From the IMG/VR virus record IMGVR_UViG_3300032322_001295, positions 23,878-87,877 of that record: a stretch of 64,000 nt of DNA; one strand, written 5' to 3'. A program made the position numbers and the translations under genes. Positions 4,462 through 64,000 of this stretch are shown piece after piece (the first letter of the stretch is position 1; each line of letters opens with the position of its first letter). Below the pieces are notes generated by a model. It did not search any database. It worked only from the letters and a program-made list of their open reading frames with translations, and had not been told where the DNA came from. The DNA is from a virus.

Positions 4462-4737
4462 TTAAACATCTGAAAACAAGTCTTTTTCTTTTGGCTTGAA
4501 TACAGGCCAAGGATACTCCTTACCATTTTTTACCCAACAGATAACATCTTTGAGATCATACACTTCATAGCCTTTATCAAAAAACATGTCAAGCAGACAT
4601 TCGTTGTCATTTATTTCGTAAGCTCTTAGTAATCTGCCACATTTGGGTTTACCTGTGCCATGACATTTGACTTTCAGATAAACCCCTGTGGCTTTAGCTA
4701 TTTTATAACATTTATCTCTATATTGACGTAAGTTCAT
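4462..4737 (-). CDS. Hypothetical protein
   Basis: ATG at 4737 (MNLRQY) lies directly after a TAnnTTTG element. Confidence 0.65.
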   Translation of the reverse strand: MNLRQYRDKCYKIAKATGVYLKVKCHGTGKPKCGRLLRAYEINDNECLLDMFFDKGYEVYDLKDVICWVKNGKEYPWPVFKPKEKDLFSDV

Positions 4738-4741
4738 CCTA

Positions 4742-4794
4742 CAAAAATACAATACAAAAAGATCAATACATAGAACACTAATACGGCAAATATA
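4742..4794 (-). promoter_or_regulatory. Two Bacteroidota-type -7 promoter elements (TAnnTTTG)
   Basis: TATATTTG at 4794-4787 and TATTTTTG at 4749-4742, in an intergenic gap. Confidence 0.55.
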
Positions 4795-14627: not shown

Positions 14628-14662
14628 AAAAATGCCTGCAAACTCGTTAGATCTACAGGCAT
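14628..14662 (-). terminator. Intrinsic terminator
   Basis: ATGCCTGTAGA...TTTGCAGGCAT stem followed by a T-tract on the minus strand. Confidence 0.6.
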
Positions 14663-15979: not shown

Positions 15980-16005
15980 AAAAAGGGCAGCTATTACAGC
16001 TGCCC
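15980..16005 (-). terminator. Intrinsic terminator
   Basis: GGGCAGCT-N5-AGCTGCCC stem followed by a T-tract. Confidence 0.75.
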
Positions 16006-16036
16006 CAACACACTATAAACACAAATAAACACTAGT

Positions 16037-18288: not shown

Positions 18289-18324
18289 AGGAATACTGAC
18301 AACCCAATGGTCATCAGTATCCCC
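18289..18324 (-). terminator. Long hairpin or terminator
   Basis: GGGGATACTGATGACC-ATTG-GGTTGTCAGTATTCCT followed by TTATTATT. Confidence 0.55.
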
Positions 18325-18330
18325 CAATTG

Positions 18331-18630
18331 TTAGAGATAAACTGTTTCACGTTGTACATTTTTAACAAACGCTTGAAAAACTCTTATTGACTCATCAATA
18401 CCAGGAAGAGTGTTAAACATATAAATATCTTCTACGTTGTTGTTTTTATCTACGTAGATTTTTACTCCGACTTGACCAAATCCGTAGATTCGGTAACTTA
18501 TTATGTAATGCCCCTCATCTTCTTTATACTTCCCATCTTCCCATAGATTAAGTTGGTACTGTGTACCATCGTTAGGAAATAACTCTTCCATTTTATTTAA
18601 TACCTCAGTTCTTAATTCTTGATAGTTCAT
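18331..18630 (-). CDS. Hypothetical early protein
   Basis: 99-aa ORF preceded by copy 1 of the conserved hairpin element. Confidence 0.75.
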   Translation of the reverse strand: MNYQELRTEVLNKMEELFPNDGTQYQLNLWEDGKYKEDEGHYIISYRIYGFGQVGVKIYVDKNNNVEDIYMFNTLPGIDESIRVFQAFVKNVQRETVYL

Positions 18631-18636
18631 AACTAT

Positions 18637-18686
18637 TATACTCTTGTCATCCTCACATAGGCTCGAGTTCTACCTATACGCTTGTT
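18637..18686 (-). repeat. Conserved leader hairpin element, copy 1
   Basis: AACAAG-CGTATAGG-TAGAACTCGAG-CCTATGTG-AGGATGACAAGAGTATA, 6 nt before the ATG at 18630. Confidence 0.85.
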
Positions 18687-18697
18687 AGTTATTTGTT

Positions 18698-18910
18698 TTA
18701 TATTGTTATTTCTGCTGGGTTCATGCAAAGCATGACATCCCACTCTTGACCGTAGTCAGAAAAAACTAAACTGTATGGTTCGCGTTCGTAATACTGAACA
18801 CCATTCCAAGAAAAAAGCATACAGCCTTCTTCGTCCCTGATTTGCAATCCATTATCATCAACACATGGAAGCAAACATTTAAGAGGGACATATTGTCCTG
18901 TCTGTGTCAT
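18698..18910 (-). CDS. Hypothetical early protein
   Basis: 70-aa ORF preceded by copy 2 of the conserved hairpin element. Confidence 0.7.
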   Translation of the reverse strand: MTQTGQYVPLKCLLPCVDDNGLQIRDEEGCMLFSWNGVQYYEREPYSLVFSDYGQEWDVMLCMNPAEITI

Positions 18911-18915
18911 ACTTA

Positions 18916-18965
18916 TATACTCTTGTCATCCTTACACGTGCTCGAGCTCTACACGCATACTTGTT
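18916..18965 (-). repeat. Conserved leader hairpin element, copy 2
   Basis: AACAAG-TATGCGTG-TAGAGCTCGAG-CACGTGTA-AGGATGACAAGAGTATA, 5 nt before the ATG at 18910. Confidence 0.85.
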
Positions 18966-19038
18966 TTTTTAAATGATTTGTTGTTTCTTACTGGATAGTA
19001 CATACTACCCTCGCACCTGTAAACTCAGGTTGTTATTC

Positions 19039-19248
19039 TTAATCTTCTAGTTTACGCACGTTCACATACGTTACTACAGTATCACCACTATTATCTGTAT
19101 CTAGAAGTTGATTCCAGATATAATCTGCAACTTTTTCCGCGTTCTCTTCAAGTACATATACACTGTGAAGATTGTCATTTAAATAAATACCATAAGAAAA
19201 TGGTGTTAAATAATCAAAAGATAACTTTTCCATAATACTAGTGACCAT
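19039..19248 (-). CDS. Hypothetical early protein
   Basis: ORF track; 69 aa. Confidence 0.6.
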   Translation of the reverse strand: MVTSIMEKLSFDYLTPFSYGIYLNDNLHSVYVLEENAEKVADYIWNQLLDTDNSGDTVVTYVNVRKLED

Positions 19249-19437
19249 TCTTTATAGGGCATTTGAGTCATTTCCCTTGTTGTGAAAAATATATAAAGTG
19301 TAGATATAATCACCTATAATAAAACCCACGCAATCACTTACAATATTAGTATGTATAACACTAATAGAGTTGTGCGATATGATGTAGAGTAGAGTAATGC
19401 GCAGCAGATGGTAGCCACTCACACCTTTTCTCTATCA

Positions 19438-19453
19438 TGTTCCACGTGGAACA
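19438..19453. promoter_or_regulatory. parS: parS centromere-like site
   Basis: Perfect 16-bp palindrome TGTTCCACGTGGAACA matching the bacterial chromosomal parS consensus; intergenic. Confidence 0.88.
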
Positions 19454-19539
19454 ATAGCACTAACAGTCTGACAGTCAACGCTATATGTAAATCATTATCT
19501 AATATTTTGTTATCTTACTAACAGTAGTATGAACCTTTT

Positions 19540-19570
19540 AAAAAAACCCCACGCCCGAAGGCGCAGGGAT
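19540..19570 (-). terminator. Intrinsic terminator
   Basis: ATCCCTGCGCC-TTCG-GGCGTGGGGT followed by a T-run, directly after the stop of 19576..19938. Confidence 0.85.
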
Positions 19571-19575
19571 TTTTC

Positions 19576-19938
19576 TTACTTCTTCTTCTTAGTAGTAGTT
19601 TTGACCACTACTTCTTTCTTTTCTTCTTCTTCTTCAGGAAGTCTAGTCTCGACGACAGCTTTGTTGTTGATGGTGACGAATAACTCCTCACCAGTTTCAA
19701 ATACAAACTCTTGTTCGTCTAGGAAATCTTCTAGGATTCCATCTTTACGTAATTGGTCTATCAACTGATAGGCACCAATGGTACCCTTATCAGTCAAGAT
19801 ACACTGCGAAGCTTTCTGCCCCCAAGTGCCTTTTCCCAATAACTTTACAAGATGTTCCCCTTCTTTCATGAATAGAGGAGAGTTCTTTTCTCCTTTTTCA
19901 ATGATTTCTGTAACCTTTCCTAATGATACCTTGCTCAT
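19576..19938 (-). CDS. Hypothetical protein; monocistronic first gene left of the strand switch
   Basis: 120 aa, has its own terminator, Glu/Lys-rich tail. Confidence 0.8.
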   Translation of the reverse strand: MSKVSLGKVTEIIEKGEKNSPLFMKEGEHLVKLLGKGTWGQKASQCILTDKGTIGAYQLIDQLRKDGILEDFLDEQEFVFETGEELFVTINNKAVVETRLPEEEEEKKEVVVKTTTKKKK

Positions 19939-20033
19939 AATACATGAAATTAAAAAGTTAGATAATGATTTAACGCGGGGGTACGATACATTAAGTGCCC
20001 TCCCGTCTTTTTTCTTTTTCCTCTACCAAAAAC

Positions 20034-20062
20034 TTGCATAAAACGTGCTATCTGTGTATATT
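20034..20062 (+). promoter_or_regulatory. Putative rightward promoter
   Basis: TTGCAT-N17-TATATT, 36 nt upstream of the ATG at 20099. Confidence 0.45.
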
Positions 20063-20098
20063 GTGCCATTATTCATTCACTATTAAATCTATATTATT

Positions 20099-23850: not shown

Positions 23851-25170
23851 ATGGCGTATAAATTTAATCCCGTAACTGGCAAACTTGATTATTACGGTGC
23901 AGGAAATCTTTCAACTGTATTAGGAAATGGTAATACATCGGGTCCTAACGATATAGATTTTGATTCTGGTAGAGGTGTGTTTTTTGATAATGCTTCTAGA
24001 ATAAAAGAAGGAACTACTGATGCTGGAAATGGTGGAGGTAAAGGAATAGCTTTATTTTGCTCTATTGATTACGAGTTAAAATGGGAAGCAGGTAGATTGT
24101 ATGTAATTCAACAAGGTGGTTTTATTATTAGACACTCTTTGTATAATTTTAATATTATACCGACTGCTGCCGATGATTCTACAAAAGGCTATCAGATTGG
24201 ATCCTTGTGGACTTTAGACGATGGTTCTGTTTATTATTGCGCAGACAATACAATGGGGGCAGCGATTTGGGCATTGCAGCAAAATGCAGTTTCGACTTTG
24301 GACCAAGTTTTAGGATCTGGCAATACAGCTAATAATAAATCAATAATTGATATCGATTTTTTGGATTTTGCAACATCATTGGGACATACAGTTGCAGAAA
24401 GTGAGCTTACTTGGAATGATACTGACGGAACCTTGGATTTAGGTCTCAAAGGTGGTTTAATCAATAAGGTTGGTCAGCAATTAGTAGTTCGTGCAAGAAA
24501 TACAAGCGGTTCTTTAATTAGTAAGGGCAGCGTTGTAAAGGTGGTTGGAGTAGCAGGAGGATTTATAGGTATAAACTTGGCACAAGCAGACAATGACACA
24601 AATAGCGCAACAGCATTTGGTATTGTTTCCGAAGACATCGCAAATAATTCTAATGGGTTTGTCACAATCAACGGGATTGTTCACGGAGTTAATACTAATG
24701 CTTATACAGAAGGAGATATTTTGTATCTTAGTCCAACTACACCAGGAGAAATAACAAATGTTAAACCAGTCTCTCCGTCTCACATTGTTATTGTCGGATA
24801 TGTAGCAAAGAAAAGCGCAACAGATGGACATATTTTGCTACATGTTCAGAATGGCTATGAGCTTGATGAGTTGCATAATGTGTTAATAACAACGCCTGAG
24901 AATGGCAATTTTTTAGAGTATAACGGCACACTTTGGGTTAATCGTGGCATTATATATACGGTTGAGTTGATGGATGCATTAACGGTAGATTTTTACGCTC
25001 CATACGATTTAAAAATAAACACAACTACAAATATCAAAAATGCTCCGACAATTACAATTCAAGACGATGGCGCTGCTTATACTTTGACAAATACTATTGC
25101 AGTAGGTAGTAAAATTACGGTAACGGCATCGGTTGCAGGGGTTACAAATCTAAACATAACAAAAGCATAA
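23851..25170 (+). CDS. Tail or head fibre protein
   Basis: MAYKFNPVTGKLD N-terminus; two TL..VL..GN repeats; ARNTSGSLISKGSVV...GYELDELHNV...LEYNGTLWVN fibre modules. Confidence 0.8.
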   Translation: MAYKFNPVTGKLDYYGAGNLSTVLGNGNTSGPNDIDFDSGRGVFFDNASRIKEGTTDAGNGGGKGIALFCSIDYELKWEAGRLYVIQQGGFIIRHSLYNFNIIPTAADDSTKGYQIGSLWTLDDGSVYYCADNTMGAAIWALQQNAVSTLDQVLGSGNTANNKSIIDIDFLDFATSLGHTVAESELTWNDTDGTLDLGLKGGLINKVGQQLVVRARNTSGSLISKGSVVKVVGVAGGFIGINLAQADNDTNSATAFGIVSEDIANNSNGFVTINGIVHGVNTNAYTEGDILYLSPTTPGEITNVKPVSPSHIVIVGYVAKKSATDGHILLHVQNGYELDELHNVLITTPENGNFLEYNGTLWVNRGIIYTVELMDALTVDFYAPYDLKINTTTNIKNAPTITIQDDGAAYTLTNTIAVGSKITVTASVAGVTNLNITKA

Positions 25171-61240: not shown

Positions 61241-64000
61241 ATGGCAGGCGGAGACGAACAACAAAAACAACAATTCATAGATCCAATATCTTTAAGGCTT
61301 AACAATATTAATGAAAACGAAGCCAAAGAAATGGGATTTACAGTTGTTCCTATGACACTTGAAGAGAGCTTTCAAGTAAATAGACGAGCAATTGGAAACA
61401 TGAGTCCAATGCAATATCAAAAGCTATATCGAGAATCTATGGAAGAAGATATGTATGATGCTGCATGGAATAGAAGACTAGATCAAAATAGAGATGCAAC
61501 TTATGATTTTATGCAATCTACAGTAAGACCTGGTGAACAAAAACCAGGTTTGCCTATACAAGCACACCCTAAAGCATGGGGCATAAGTGCAGAAAATGCG
61601 TGGAAATATCAAAGTGAAGATTCTAATAAAAGATTATCACAAATAGGATATGAATATGGCTTAAATGGAACTAGAAGGCAAACGCTTAATAATGAACAAA
61701 TAGCTGAATCCAGGAAACAATATTGGGACCCAAAAGCTAATTTAGGCATGGGTGCATTTAAAAGCATTGAAACATACCAAAGATCTAATCATTTTGGTTC
61801 TCCTTATAGATTTGATGATGATGGTACTAAAAAAATGTTAGTAATGGATAATGCTAACAAAATGTGGGTTGAAGTTGACGAGGATGATGTTATTGCTGGT
61901 AATCAGTTAAGATCAACATGGGGTACAAAAGAAAAAGATTCTGGATTTTTTCAACATGTTTCCGATAGCTTTTATAATGGTGTTGTAGATTTAAGTTCTA
62001 ACATGTGGGGTAGTATGGTAGAATCAATGGGCACCATGGGTAAGTTTATGTCAGGAAGTGATGATGTAAACTCATGGCAAAAATGGGGTAGATCCGTTCA
62101 GAACTATGGCAATGCAAATAAATCTAAAATATCTGAAGCTGCAGAAAACGAAGGTATGTTTGGCTCTTGGAGAGCAGGATTTGGTACAGTAACTAATATG
62201 CTTCCACAACTTGCTGTACAAGCCGGTATTGGATATTTAACTGGTGGCGCATCTGCATACGTACAAGCTTTAGGTAAAGGTGGTCAGTTTGCCGCTAGAA
62301 TGATGAGTGGTGCTCCATATATGTTTGGTGCTATTTATGCTGCAAATGGAATGAATGAAGAAGGTAAAGCAGCAGGACTATCTGATAATGACAGGATGTT
62401 TATGAATCTGCTTGCTGGAGGTGCTGTGTTTGCTGCTGAAAAGTTTACATCAAAGTTTCTTGGTGCAACAGGTATAGCTGATGGATTTGCAAATAAAGCA
62501 AGTAGAGAGATTGTAGAGAAAAATATGGCTAAAGGTTATAGCGAAGTGACAAAAAAGTTTACTCCTACTATAATATCCAAAACAGCATCTAATGCAGAAA
62601 AAGAAGCTGCTAAAGAAGCAGCGTCATCTACACTTGGAAGATATTATCTTAATGGATTAAAAGCAGTCGTAACAACAGGAAATCTAGGTAAAAATTTAGG
62701 TCAAAATTTATTAAATGGAACACAAAGGTTATTAAGTGCACCAATACGTTTTGGCTATACAACTACACCAAAAACATTAATGGGTAGAACTAGAGGATTT
62801 GTTGCGTCTGCATGGGAAGAAGGATGGGAAGAAGAAATAGAAAAGCACATGAACTATTGGTTTAAAGAGGCATATAATGCAGGAATGATTGGCATTGATG
62901 GTCCTGATAAGTATGCTGCTCCTGGTAAAGGTATGTTTGACAACACAGTACATTCTAAACCTTATGATGAGTTTTTTGCTGGCGCTATTGGTGGTGGTAT
63001 TATGGGTGCTATATTTGGAGGTAGAATGAAAAGAAACTTTTCTGATAAAGTAGCCATAGAATATGCACTGCAATTTGGCGGTGATGCTGATAAAGCTGAT
63101 GCTGGATTATTAAATATGAAAGAAAGAATTGGACTTGATTCTAAAATCACAGATCCAAATGATAACTTTTTATCAATGTTTTCTGAAACAGAAAGAAAAG
63201 ATGTAAAAAGTAGAAACGATATAGCATTTGAAGCTTTAAGAGAAGATGTAAGAGCAGCATGTCAAATCATTAAAACATTTAAACTTACTGATGCTGATAA
63301 AATAGCTCGTATTGCCGGTGGTGATATGAGATTGGTAAATGACACAGTAGAAAATCTTGTTAACGCAAGAAAACTATCTACAGAAATAGAAGGATTAAAA
63401 AAACAACTTCAAGACACAAAACCTGAAGATGTAAACTACAAAGAACTAGAAAGGCAAATACAAGAAAAAGAAGTAGATTTAAAACAAGTAAGTAAACTTG
63501 CTGATGATGTATTGTCTGGAAAAGCTATTGAAAACTATAGAGCGCAAACATTTGTCCGTGGCTTGTTAGTAAATAATGAATACAATAATCTATACAATAG
63601 TATAGAAAGTGAAACGGATCCTGAAGTAAAAAGACAAAAAGCACAAAAAGCTTTTGATGATTCTATAGATAATGCGGAAAAAAGAGACTTGTGGAAAGAC
63701 CAAGAAAAAGCATTAAATCTTATTTACAATAGTAGAGAAATACTTGAACAGTTTAAGCAGTCAAAAGCTACAATAGAAGAAAGAACTAAGCAAAGTAATG
63801 ATTTTGTATCTGAGTTTGACTCTATTGATTTTAACAATCCTGATAGTATTAATGAAGTATTGCAAAAAGTAAATGGCAATCATCTTGAAGAAATTGTAGG
63901 TAAAAAGATTGACGACATTAGTAAAAAAATCAATGACGAAAGAGAAAAAATACAAAATGAACTTGATACTGATTTTAATTCGGTAAGAGATAAGTTTGGG
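61241..64000 (+). CDS. Giant virion cargo protein of the crAss-like RNAP/ejection block (3' end truncated by the window edge)
   Basis: Not in the ORF track because no stop codon occurs before the window end. ATG at 61241 gives MAGGDEQQKQQ...; Gly/Ala-rich hydrophobic helices and a WEEGWEEEIE motif as in crAss-like giant proteins. Confidence 0.8.
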   Translation, partial: MAGGDEQQKQQFIDPISLRLNNINENEAKEMGFTVVPMTLEESFQVNRRAIGNMSPMQYQKLYRESMEEDMYDAAWNRRLDQNRDATYDFMQSTVRPGEQKPGLPIQAHPKAWGISAENAWKYQSEDSNKRLSQIGYEYGLNGTRRQTLNNEQIAESRKQYWDPKANLGMGAFKSIETYQRSNHFGSPYRFDDDGTKKMLVMDNANKMWVEVDEDDVIAGNQLRSTWGTKEKDSGFFQHVSDSFYNGVVDLSSNMWGSMVESMGTMGKFMSGSDDVNSWQKWGRSVQNYGNANKSKISEAAENEGMFGSWRAGFGTVTNMLPQLAVQAGIGYLTGGASAYVQALGKGGQFAARMMSGAPYMFGAIYAANGMNEEGKAAGLSDNDRMFMNLLAGGAVFAAEKFTSKFLGATGIADGFANKASREIVEKNMAKGYSEVTKKFTPTIISKTASNAEKEAAKEAASSTLGRYYLNGLKAVVTTGNLGKNLGQNLLNGTQRLLSAPIRFGYTTTPKTLMGRTRGFVASAWEEGWEEEIEKHMNYWFKEAYNAGMIGIDGPDKYAAPGKGMFDNTVHSKPYDEFFAGAIGGGIMGAIFGGRMKRNFSDKVAIEYALQFGGDADKADAGLLNMKERIGLDSKITDPNDNFLSMFSETERKDVKSRNDIAFEALREDVRAACQIIKTFKLTDADKIARIAGGDMRLVNDTVENLVNARKLSTEIEGLKKQLQDTKPEDVNYKELERQIQEKEVDLKQVSKLADDVLSGKAIENYRAQTFVRGLLVNNEYNNLYNSIESETDPEVKRQKAQKAFDDSIDNAEKRDLWKDQEKALNLIYNSREILEQFKQSKATIEERTKQSNDFVSEFDSIDFNNPDSINEVLQKVNGNHLEEIVGKKIDDISKKINDEREKIQNELDTDFNSVRDKFG

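Follow-up and report, generated by a model that had tools for sequence, protein, structure and literature searches.

A candidate hairpin-leader module in front of exchangeable ORFans of freshwater crAss-like phages

Introduction

Phage translational operators include the coat-protein hairpin of MS2/R17, which is located at the start of the replicase gene, and the operators of T4 gene 32 and regA. The promoters of phage N4 are hairpins with stems of 5–7 bp and loops of 3 nt, and they are formed by the template strand. T4-type phages carry PeSL cassettes, in which a consensus sigma-70 early promoter is combined with a GC-rich terminating stem-loop and which are present in many copies (PMC2839356; PMC4122927). 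In phi14:2, a phage of the same order as the virus examined here, genes g070 and g075 have been named as having middle promoters (bioRxiv 10.1101/2020.03.07.982082); in the sequence upstream of their ATGs, we read the blocks AAACTTG and TAnnTTTG, separated by ~17–18 nt. Otherwise, early gene expression in crAss-like phages is largely obscure, and no promoter motif has been found for the RNA polymerase (RNAP) that they inject.

The window analyzed here is a 64,000-nt stretch of DNA, corresponding to bases 23878-87877 of the 87,877-bp IMG/VR virus record IMGVR_UViG_3300032322_001295 (34.5 per cent GC; 123-bp terminal repeat). An original prediction, made from the letters of the window, described two copies of a leader hairpin that share flanks and loop, have stems that differ in sequence and still pair, contain G-T wobbles that work only on the coding strand, and lie 5–6 nt before the ATGs of two early genes. 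Two roles were offered, a cis-acting RNA motif and an N4-style hairpin promoter. Below, we describe the element, its distribution and its genomic surroundings, and weigh these roles against several others.

Genome and gene neighborhood

The virus can be assigned to the crAss-like phages, since its terminase, portal and major capsid proteins match crAss-like PHROGs; the terminase is 26–29 per cent identical to Crassvirales terminases from Bacteroides, Flavobacterium and gut metagenomes. The gene starts of this genome have no Shine-Dalgarno sequences, which is what a host from the Bacteroidota would lead one to expect. The leftward (minus-strand) arm, ~20 kb long, encodes an ERF recombinase, a Gp157 protein, a glucosaminidase and many unknown proteins, and the remaining genome is read rightward. 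Both copies of the element are situated near the head of the leftward arm (Table 1), a position from which the genes behind them are presumably early.

The two genes that directly follow the copies encode ORFans of 70 and 99 amino acids (genes 2 and 3). The metagenomic homologs of gene 2 are 61–83 per cent identical to it, and gene 3 has two homolog clusters, at 78 and 61 per cent identity. Neither gene matched Pfam or PHROG, and neither has relatives in IMG/VR. Genes 2 and 3 are real genes with a few metagenomic relatives.

Table 1. Features of the element and its surroundings, numbered along the window unless another sequence is named (G000, this virus record)
Feature	Position	Strand	Remarks
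Element copy A	18965..18911	minus	AACAAG 18965-18960; 5' arm 18959-18952; loop 18951-18941; 3' arm 18940-18933; 17-mer 18932-18916; 5 nt; ATG 18910
Element copy B	18686..18632	minus	AACAAG 18686-18681; 5' arm 18680-18673; loop 18672-18662; 3' arm 18661-18654; 17-mer 18653-18637; 6 nt; ATG 18630
Gene 1	19039..19248	minus	69-aa variable ORF upstream of copy A; replaced in G001 and L017
Gene 2	18698..18910	minus	70-aa ORFan between copies A and B
Gene 3	18331..18630	minus	99-aa ORFan directly 3' of copy B
ORF after copy A of G000			MTQTGQ...
ORF after copy B of G000			MNYQEL...
ORF after the element in G001			MWVTQN...
ORF after the element in L017			MNKFEG...
ORF after element B in run X2			MRNVRN...
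120-aa ORF	19938..19576	minus	followed by a strong intrinsic terminator
Strong intrinsic terminator	19547..19568	minus	after the 120-aa ORF
16-nt perfect palindrome TGTTCCACGTGGAACA	19453..19438		in a block conserved in G000, G001 and L017
Sigma-70-like TTGTAA-16-TATTAT	19316..19343	minus	candidate promoter of the ORFan unit; consensus match
49-nt intergenic module	18993..19041	minus	two small hairpins and sigma-70-like TTTACA-17-TACTAT (19023..18995)
Intrinsic terminator	15984..16006	minus	closes the unit that carries the elements
Intrinsic terminator	14662..14632		further same-strand genes beyond
Giant ORF, 6,568 aa	G000:C1:133-19836	plus	upstream of the window; DQDVD at residue 3749

Anatomy of the element

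In both copies, the minus (sense) strand reads AACAAG, an 8-nt arm, TAGA(G/A)CTCGAG, a second 8-nt arm, the invariant 17-mer AGGATGACAAGAGTATA, 5–6 nt and the ATG, which gives a module of ~55 bases in total. The arms are TATGCGTG and CACGTGTA in copy A and CGTATAGG and CCTATGTG in copy B; the latter differ from the former and are fully paired. When the conserved U-G closing pair is counted, the stem has 9 bp and the loop is AGARCUCGA; otherwise, the stem has 8 bp and the loop 11 nt. All features named in the original prediction are thus present, with the ATG 5 nt away in copy A and 6 nt away in copy B.

The stems of the two copies differ at 10 of 16 positions and keep every pair, through four double compensatory and two one-sided changes, and each of the two stem alleles contains two G-U pairs. 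Outside the stem, the loop and flanks are identical at 33 of 34 positions. In an alignment of four copies, which includes two from related genomes, 100 per cent of the stem cells are paired, and its pairing and covariation values were reached in 1 of 500 shuffles. Pairing of eight out of eight positions across an 11-nt loop, with G-T allowed, occurs at ~6e-4 of genome positions, and the elements pass this test on the minus strand only; on the opposite (plus) strand, the stem pairing is not kept. The wobbles therefore work on the coding strand alone, as had been predicted. G-U pairs in RNA are better tolerated than G-T pairs in DNA. Free stem sequence with retained pairing, G-U pairs in the sense orientation only and an invariant loop with invariant flanks are together the signature of a structured RNA.

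The hairpins themselves are moderately weak, with RNA folding energies of ~-7.7 kcal/mol for copy A and -5.5 kcal/mol for copy B taken alone, and DNA folds of the sense strand of -1.9 to -3.0 kcal/mol; fold z-scores of the elements are ~0. The evidence for the structure is therefore its covariation and conservation rather than its thermodynamics, and, as there are only two stem alleles, the covariation amounts to one independent comparison. Fold predictions give the hairpin a probability of 0.65–0.98 in three of four contexts and leave about half of the leader unpaired; in the context of copy A of this genome, a competing fold wins and the pair probability of the hairpin is 0.1. The 17-mer and the spacer behind it are purine/A-rich and nearly free of C, are mostly unpaired in the predictions and reach the AUG in every context.

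These weak energies, the existence of two alleles only and a very narrow distribution (see below) are what would be expected of a sequence with no function of its own, that is, of a recent duplication or a hitch-hiking sequence with fortuitous stem complementarity. Such an origin is hard to reconcile with the ~6e-4 chance of complete pairing at a fixed register, with the confinement of changes to the stem, or with a copy A core that does not vary between genomes with non-homologous or 69–93 per cent identical flanks. We consider it barely plausible.

The strand on which the hairpin forms also bears on the second role that had been proposed, an N4-style promoter in which a single-stranded DNA hairpin, extruded from supercoiled DNA, would be recognized by the virion RNAP. 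A conserved loop and flanks around a variable stem follow the recognition logic of hairpin promoters, and gp66 of phi14:2 transcribes denatured but not native DNA in vitro (bioRxiv 10.1101/2020.03.07.982082). In addition, a giant ORF with a DQDVD motif, which may hold the RNAP, lies upstream of the window and may, through the terminal repeat, connect directly with window 61241-64000. Its DQDVD could be the metal-binding motif of a two-barrel RNAP, a possible assignment read from the motif itself; the ORF has no match in Pfam or PHROG, and a phmmer comparison of the suspected RNAP region with PDB sequences, phi14:2 gp66 included, gave no match. The anatomy of the element nevertheless speaks against an N4-style promoter. 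The complete pairing test is passed by the sense strand only, and on the template strand (the plus strand of the window) only 4–5 pairs remain in an unbroken row, each copy has two A-C mismatches and the loop measures 11 nt; as DNA, this strand folds at -1.5 to -2.6 kcal/mol with z ~0. Stem and loop, at 8–9 bp and 9–11 nt, are larger than the 5–7 bp and 3 nt of N4 promoters, and the element is preceded by other genes and by sigma-70-like modules instead of standing at the head of the arm. This option is accordingly very unlikely indeed.

Several smaller observations concern the loop and the leader. A 4-bp pairing between loop and leader, RCUC with GAGU, is possible, and the one variable loop base would give either an A-U or a G-U pair; it is too short to assess. 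CTCGAG occurs at 3 sites in 88 kb (window 18662, 18941 and 32431) against ~8 expected, and two of the three are the element loops; its scarcity elsewhere in the genome may reflect restriction avoidance. An AUG within the 17-mer was considered as the start of a conserved mini-ORF and rejected: it opens MTRV-stop in copy B, in L017 and in run X2, and in copy A and G001 it enters the main ORF in a different reading frame. An N-terminal extension of the downstream genes is likewise ruled out by in-frame stops 18 and 42 nt upstream.

Distribution and conservation

The 17-mer has two exact matches in the window, and these are also the only two in the whole 87,877-bp genome; by chance, ~0.26 matches would be expected even with three mismatches allowed. 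In IMG/VR, exact and gapped pattern scans returned a single relative (IMGVR_UViG_3300043773_000921, hereafter G001; 88.5 kb, 82–93 per cent identical to G000), the remaining matches being chance occurrences in coding DNA. A pattern scan of JGI/ENA metagenome contigs gave one true relative among 20 matches (Ga0181349_1000146, hereafter L017), and 17 matches in GTDB genomes were all due to chance in coding DNA, mostly of high-GC genomes. G001 and L017 carry one copy each. Both copies have the A-type stem, with a 50-nt core identical to that of copy A in G000, although homologous DNA near the element is only 69–93 per cent identical across the three. Copy A is covered by contigs of four lake or freshwater runs and copy B by a contig of one (run X2), and the related contigs come from lake and freshwater metagenomes.

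The novelty of the element withstood comparison with Rfam. At the gathering threshold, the only family found in the whole window was tRNA, located elsewhere, and at E<=10 nothing meaningful was found in window 18300-19600 or in the corresponding region of G001, the best match on the element being CRISPR-DR33 (15.5 bits, E 6.5). A covariance model (R1) built from the copies, a type of search that had been proposed as a way to find further covarying examples, was applied to all of G000, all of G001 and L017; it detected the copies already known, four in total, and no other site scored above 16 bits. Other routes to relatives yielded little. A 205-aa neighbor protein has 2 homolog clusters only, and none of 80 fetched loci encoding homologs of a 439-aa protein contained the element. 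The latter protein (window 23851-25170, plus strand) has >1,600 metagenomic homologs in many unrelated phage contigs and is 57 per cent identical to its G001 ortholog, in contrast to its neighbors, whose DNA is 82–93 per cent identical. Possibly, this protein is a virion or receptor-binding module that evolves fast and is widely exchanged.

With 1–2 copies per genome, and with the other genes of the leftward arm lacking it, the element is not a general early-gene leader. By its sequence and distribution, it appears to be a real and undescribed hairpin-leader module that is restricted to a narrow group of freshwater crAss-like phages.

Gene exchange at the element edges

Between window positions 19310 and 18349, G000, G001 and L017 are non-homologous except for the element and one 49-nt module. 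Five contexts of the element are followed by five different ORFs, and in each of them the module ends 5–6 nt before the ATG (Table 1). Homology breakpoints, contig joints and loose contig ends fall at window positions 18634, 18907/18914 and 18967/18969, which are the edges of the element. Different downstream genes and breakpoints at the edges make the element a conserved junction between interchangeable ORFans. In the copies of G001 and L017, an A-type hairpin is followed, ahead of the ATG, by a tail resembling that of copy B, and such chimeras are what recombination within the module would be expected to produce. As far as breakpoints can tell, the comparison of these genomes shows the element to be a crossover point for ORFan exchange. 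The exchange is probably carried out by the ERF-type annealing recombinase that the phage encodes.

A dedicated DNA recombination site, either attC-like or resembling the single-stranded hairpins of HUH nucleases and relaxases, would mobilize the bracketed gene directly. Such a site would account for a strand-specific hairpin whose structure is kept without its stem sequence, for conserved flanks, for the bracketing of gene 2 by two copies and for the breakpoints at the element edges. The flanks, however, form a direct ACAAG repeat instead of inverted RYYYAAC/GTTRRRY core sites, and the element is therefore not attC-like. Moreover, no integrase or HUH nuclease was recognized among the scanned neighbors, the close coupling to the ATG suggests a role in gene expression, and ordinary homologous exchange by the ERF recombinase suffices. 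We give this explanation very little credence.

Transcription context

On the minus strand, the 49-nt module is followed by copy A, gene 2, copy B, gene 3, a set of conserved genes and a terminator. Because a strong terminator lies upstream (19568..19547), the ORFan unit needs either a promoter of its own or read-through. Two sigma-70-like sequences are candidates (Table 1). Homology between G000 and G001 stops at 19310, just downstream of the first, TTGTAA-16-TATTAT. The second belongs to the 49-nt module, which is 94 per cent conserved between G000 and G001 behind non-homologous upstream genes and is also present in lake contigs; homology ends right after its -10-like hexamer. The sole G/A difference between the G000 and G001 modules leaves the second hairpin paired (G-U in one, A-U in the other). 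Sigma-70-like matches in the region are not commoner than in shuffled sequences, so the case for the two candidate promoters is one of conservation. Use of either one would place both elements within the mRNA.

The actual change of strand probably occurs near 19940-20098. In window 19529-20041, the 120-aa minus-strand ORF upstream of the terminator shares its wobble positions with two overlapping ORFs of the plus strand (79 and 87 aa), and codon-position analysis therefore does not separate them; the minus-strand ORF is preferred because the terminator comes after it. L017 has a different gene at this site, followed by the same kind of terminator. In G001, the element is separated from the 49-nt module by an insertion of 225 non-coding nt (L008:6754-6977; G001:32754-32977). 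This region folds better than shuffled sequences (z -2.7), contains another AACAAG followed by a hairpin and has no match in Rfam.

The arrangement of the unit also invites comparison with nut-like antitermination sites, in which an RNA hairpin and linear boxes load a phage factor onto RNAP. The element would then let RNAP read through the terminators at 16006..15984 and 14662..14632. Its linear box, hairpin with a sequence-specific loop and second linear box resemble boxA and boxB, and each relative has one copy near the start of the leftward unit, upstream of two terminators with same-strand genes beyond. A nut site needs no start codon nearby, though, and the module lies 5–6 nt from an ATG in five of five contexts; furthermore, the rightward arm has no copy, and neither an N-like or Q-like protein nor a boxA consensus was recognized. 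To our knowledge, nut-type systems have not been documented for Bacteroidota phages. We therefore regard antitermination as very unlikely.

Promoter and terminator signals

Several conventional signals were considered for the element and rejected. It is not an intrinsic terminator: the hairpin has two G-U pairs and no U-tract or T-run, and a terminator scan lists the real terminators nearby but not the element. It is not a host-type sigma-70 promoter either, as there is no -35 sequence at 16–18 nt and the TATAAT-like hexamer lies too near the ATG. Neither box of the Bacteroidota sigma-A promoter, as read upstream of g070 and g075 of phi14:2 (-33 TTG, ~19 nt ahead of -7 TAnnTTTG), is present in any copy or within 60 nt upstream of it.

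The main rival to an RNA role is a composite, PeSL-like cassette, in which the hairpin would end or protect the upstream RNA, and the 17-mer, with the loop and AACAAG possibly as its upstream blocks, would serve as a promoter specific to the phage. Either the injected virion RNAP or host RNAP together with a phage factor would recognize it, and the mRNA would be nearly leaderless. In favor of this possibility, variable 8-nt spacers divide the sequence into three invariant blocks that stand at a fixed distance from the ATG, and each copy comes after the stop codon of the upstream gene or after the conserved intergenic module. For the crAss-like virion RNAP, no promoter is known (bioRxiv 10.1101/2020.03.07.982082). 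Two other sequences also have a bearing on the short distance. In phi14:2, the -7 box of the mapped middle promoter of g070, TATATTTG, lies 5 nt before the ATG (L137:32140-32225), and in the present genome the ATG of a 91-aa ORF has a host-type -7 box, TATTTTTG, 4 nt upstream of it (window 4737-4756, minus strand). Given these two boxes, promoters abutting start codons do occur in this phage order, and mRNAs with no leader, or with almost none, may be widespread among these phages.

On the other side, a double-stranded DNA promoter needs neither complementary spacers nor G-T wobbles that work on one strand. The element contains no TAnnTTTG or TTG box and no -35 sequence at 16–18 nt, and only 3–4 nt separate its TATAAT-like hexamer from the ATG, a distance too short for a start of the sigma-70 type. 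The hairpin lacks a U-tract, unlike the real terminators of this lineage, which are GC-rich and have T-runs. There are only 1–2 copies per genome, and other genes of the arm have none; a sigma-70-like module already exists upstream of copy A; and the virion RNAP of this phage is so far represented by a candidate ORF. A hairpin combined with a phage-specific promoter is therefore, in our view, an unlikely explanation, if the strongest of the competitors.

Proposed role

We favor the interpretation of the module as a sense-strand RNA hairpin joined to an invariant unstructured leader, which together would serve accessory ORFans and double as a homology patch for cassette exchange, and we give it a probability of about 40 per cent. 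The first part would be a hairpin whose stem must pair and is free in sequence, with a fixed loop (AGARCUCGA) and fixed flanks (AACAAG and the 17-mer). The second would be the purine/A-rich, C-poor leader, which runs to 5–6 nt from the AUG and could be the translation initiation region of whichever ORF comes next; we suggest this function because the host uses no Shine-Dalgarno sequences. The fixed bases of loop and flanks may form a surface that a protein or the ribosome recognizes, and the hairpin might act in translational control, in processing, in mRNA stability or as an operator. Since the module is the only sequence common to otherwise unrelated ORFans, it would also be the patch of homology at which whole genes are gained, lost and replaced.

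Three observations agree with an RNA element: the pairing needs G-U and is kept on the sense strand only, no in-frame start exists upstream of the ATGs, and the unit is bounded by terminators (19568..19547 and 16006..15984) with candidate promoters upstream of the copies. Against it count the presence of two stem alleles only, the weakness of the hairpins and the competing fold at copy A of G000. Scans with Pfam and PHROG identified no RNA-binding protein in the operon, and the conserved loop and flanks with variable spacers could instead be a three-block DNA signal. The strand-specific covariation, the location inside a sense-strand transcription unit and the position next to a start codon lend support to the cis-acting RNA role in the original prediction, which would have the element act as RNA. 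Taken as a whole, that prediction is partly supported; it did not bring out that the element coincides with homology breakpoints between exchangeable ORFans, that the relatives have a single copy, or that the covariation derives from two alleles.

A bolder proposal would have the module recognized by machinery specific to the phage. It might be the first promoter or entry site to be defined for a crAss-like virion RNAP, which would read the hairpin and the fixed bases much as in N4, but on the other strand or in the nascent RNA, or an operator for a phage RNA-binding regulator of accessory early genes. We consider this proposal rather improbable.

Comparison with known systems

The element is a compact and precisely bounded candidate signal of ~50 nt, whose stem occurs in two natural alleles and whose loop and leader are invariant, in a group of phages whose early-gene signals are poorly described. 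Its general importance is limited for now by its narrow distribution and by the existence of two alleles only.

Compared with the operators of MS2/R17, T4 gene 32 and regA, the element is similar in that a hairpin with specific loop and flanks and a sequence-free stem lies near a start codon, an analogy that may or may not extend to function. The hairpin differs from those operators in lying 22–23 nt upstream, with the AUG outside it, and in having no known partner protein. With the N4 promoters of Schitoviridae, it has in common a hairpin signal with conserved bases and a variable stem in front of small genes of a phage thought to inject its RNAP; the sizes of stem and loop are different, however, and it is the non-template strand that forms the stable hairpin. 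The phi14:2 middle promoters come from the same phage order and show that a multi-block motif can sit ~5 nt from an ATG (P070), but the element has neither the AAACTTG nor the TAnnTTTG block.

The comparison with the PeSL cassettes of T4-type phages is the most extensive. In both systems, a short conserved composite motif with a stem-loop is repeated between small ORFans in a plastic region, and the crossover points of gene insertion, deletion and replacement between strains fall in the motif. The element departs from PeSLs in having no host-consensus promoter, a hairpin with G-U pairs and no U-tract in place of a terminator stem-loop, an invariant part that adjoins the ATG, and 1–2 copies per genome. 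That regulatory punctuation serves as a scaffold for the shuffling of phage genes is already known; what is new is the hairpin-leader module as a variant of it, which provides an example, outside the T4-type phages, of conserved regulatory punctuation as a scaffold for the exchange of accessory genes.
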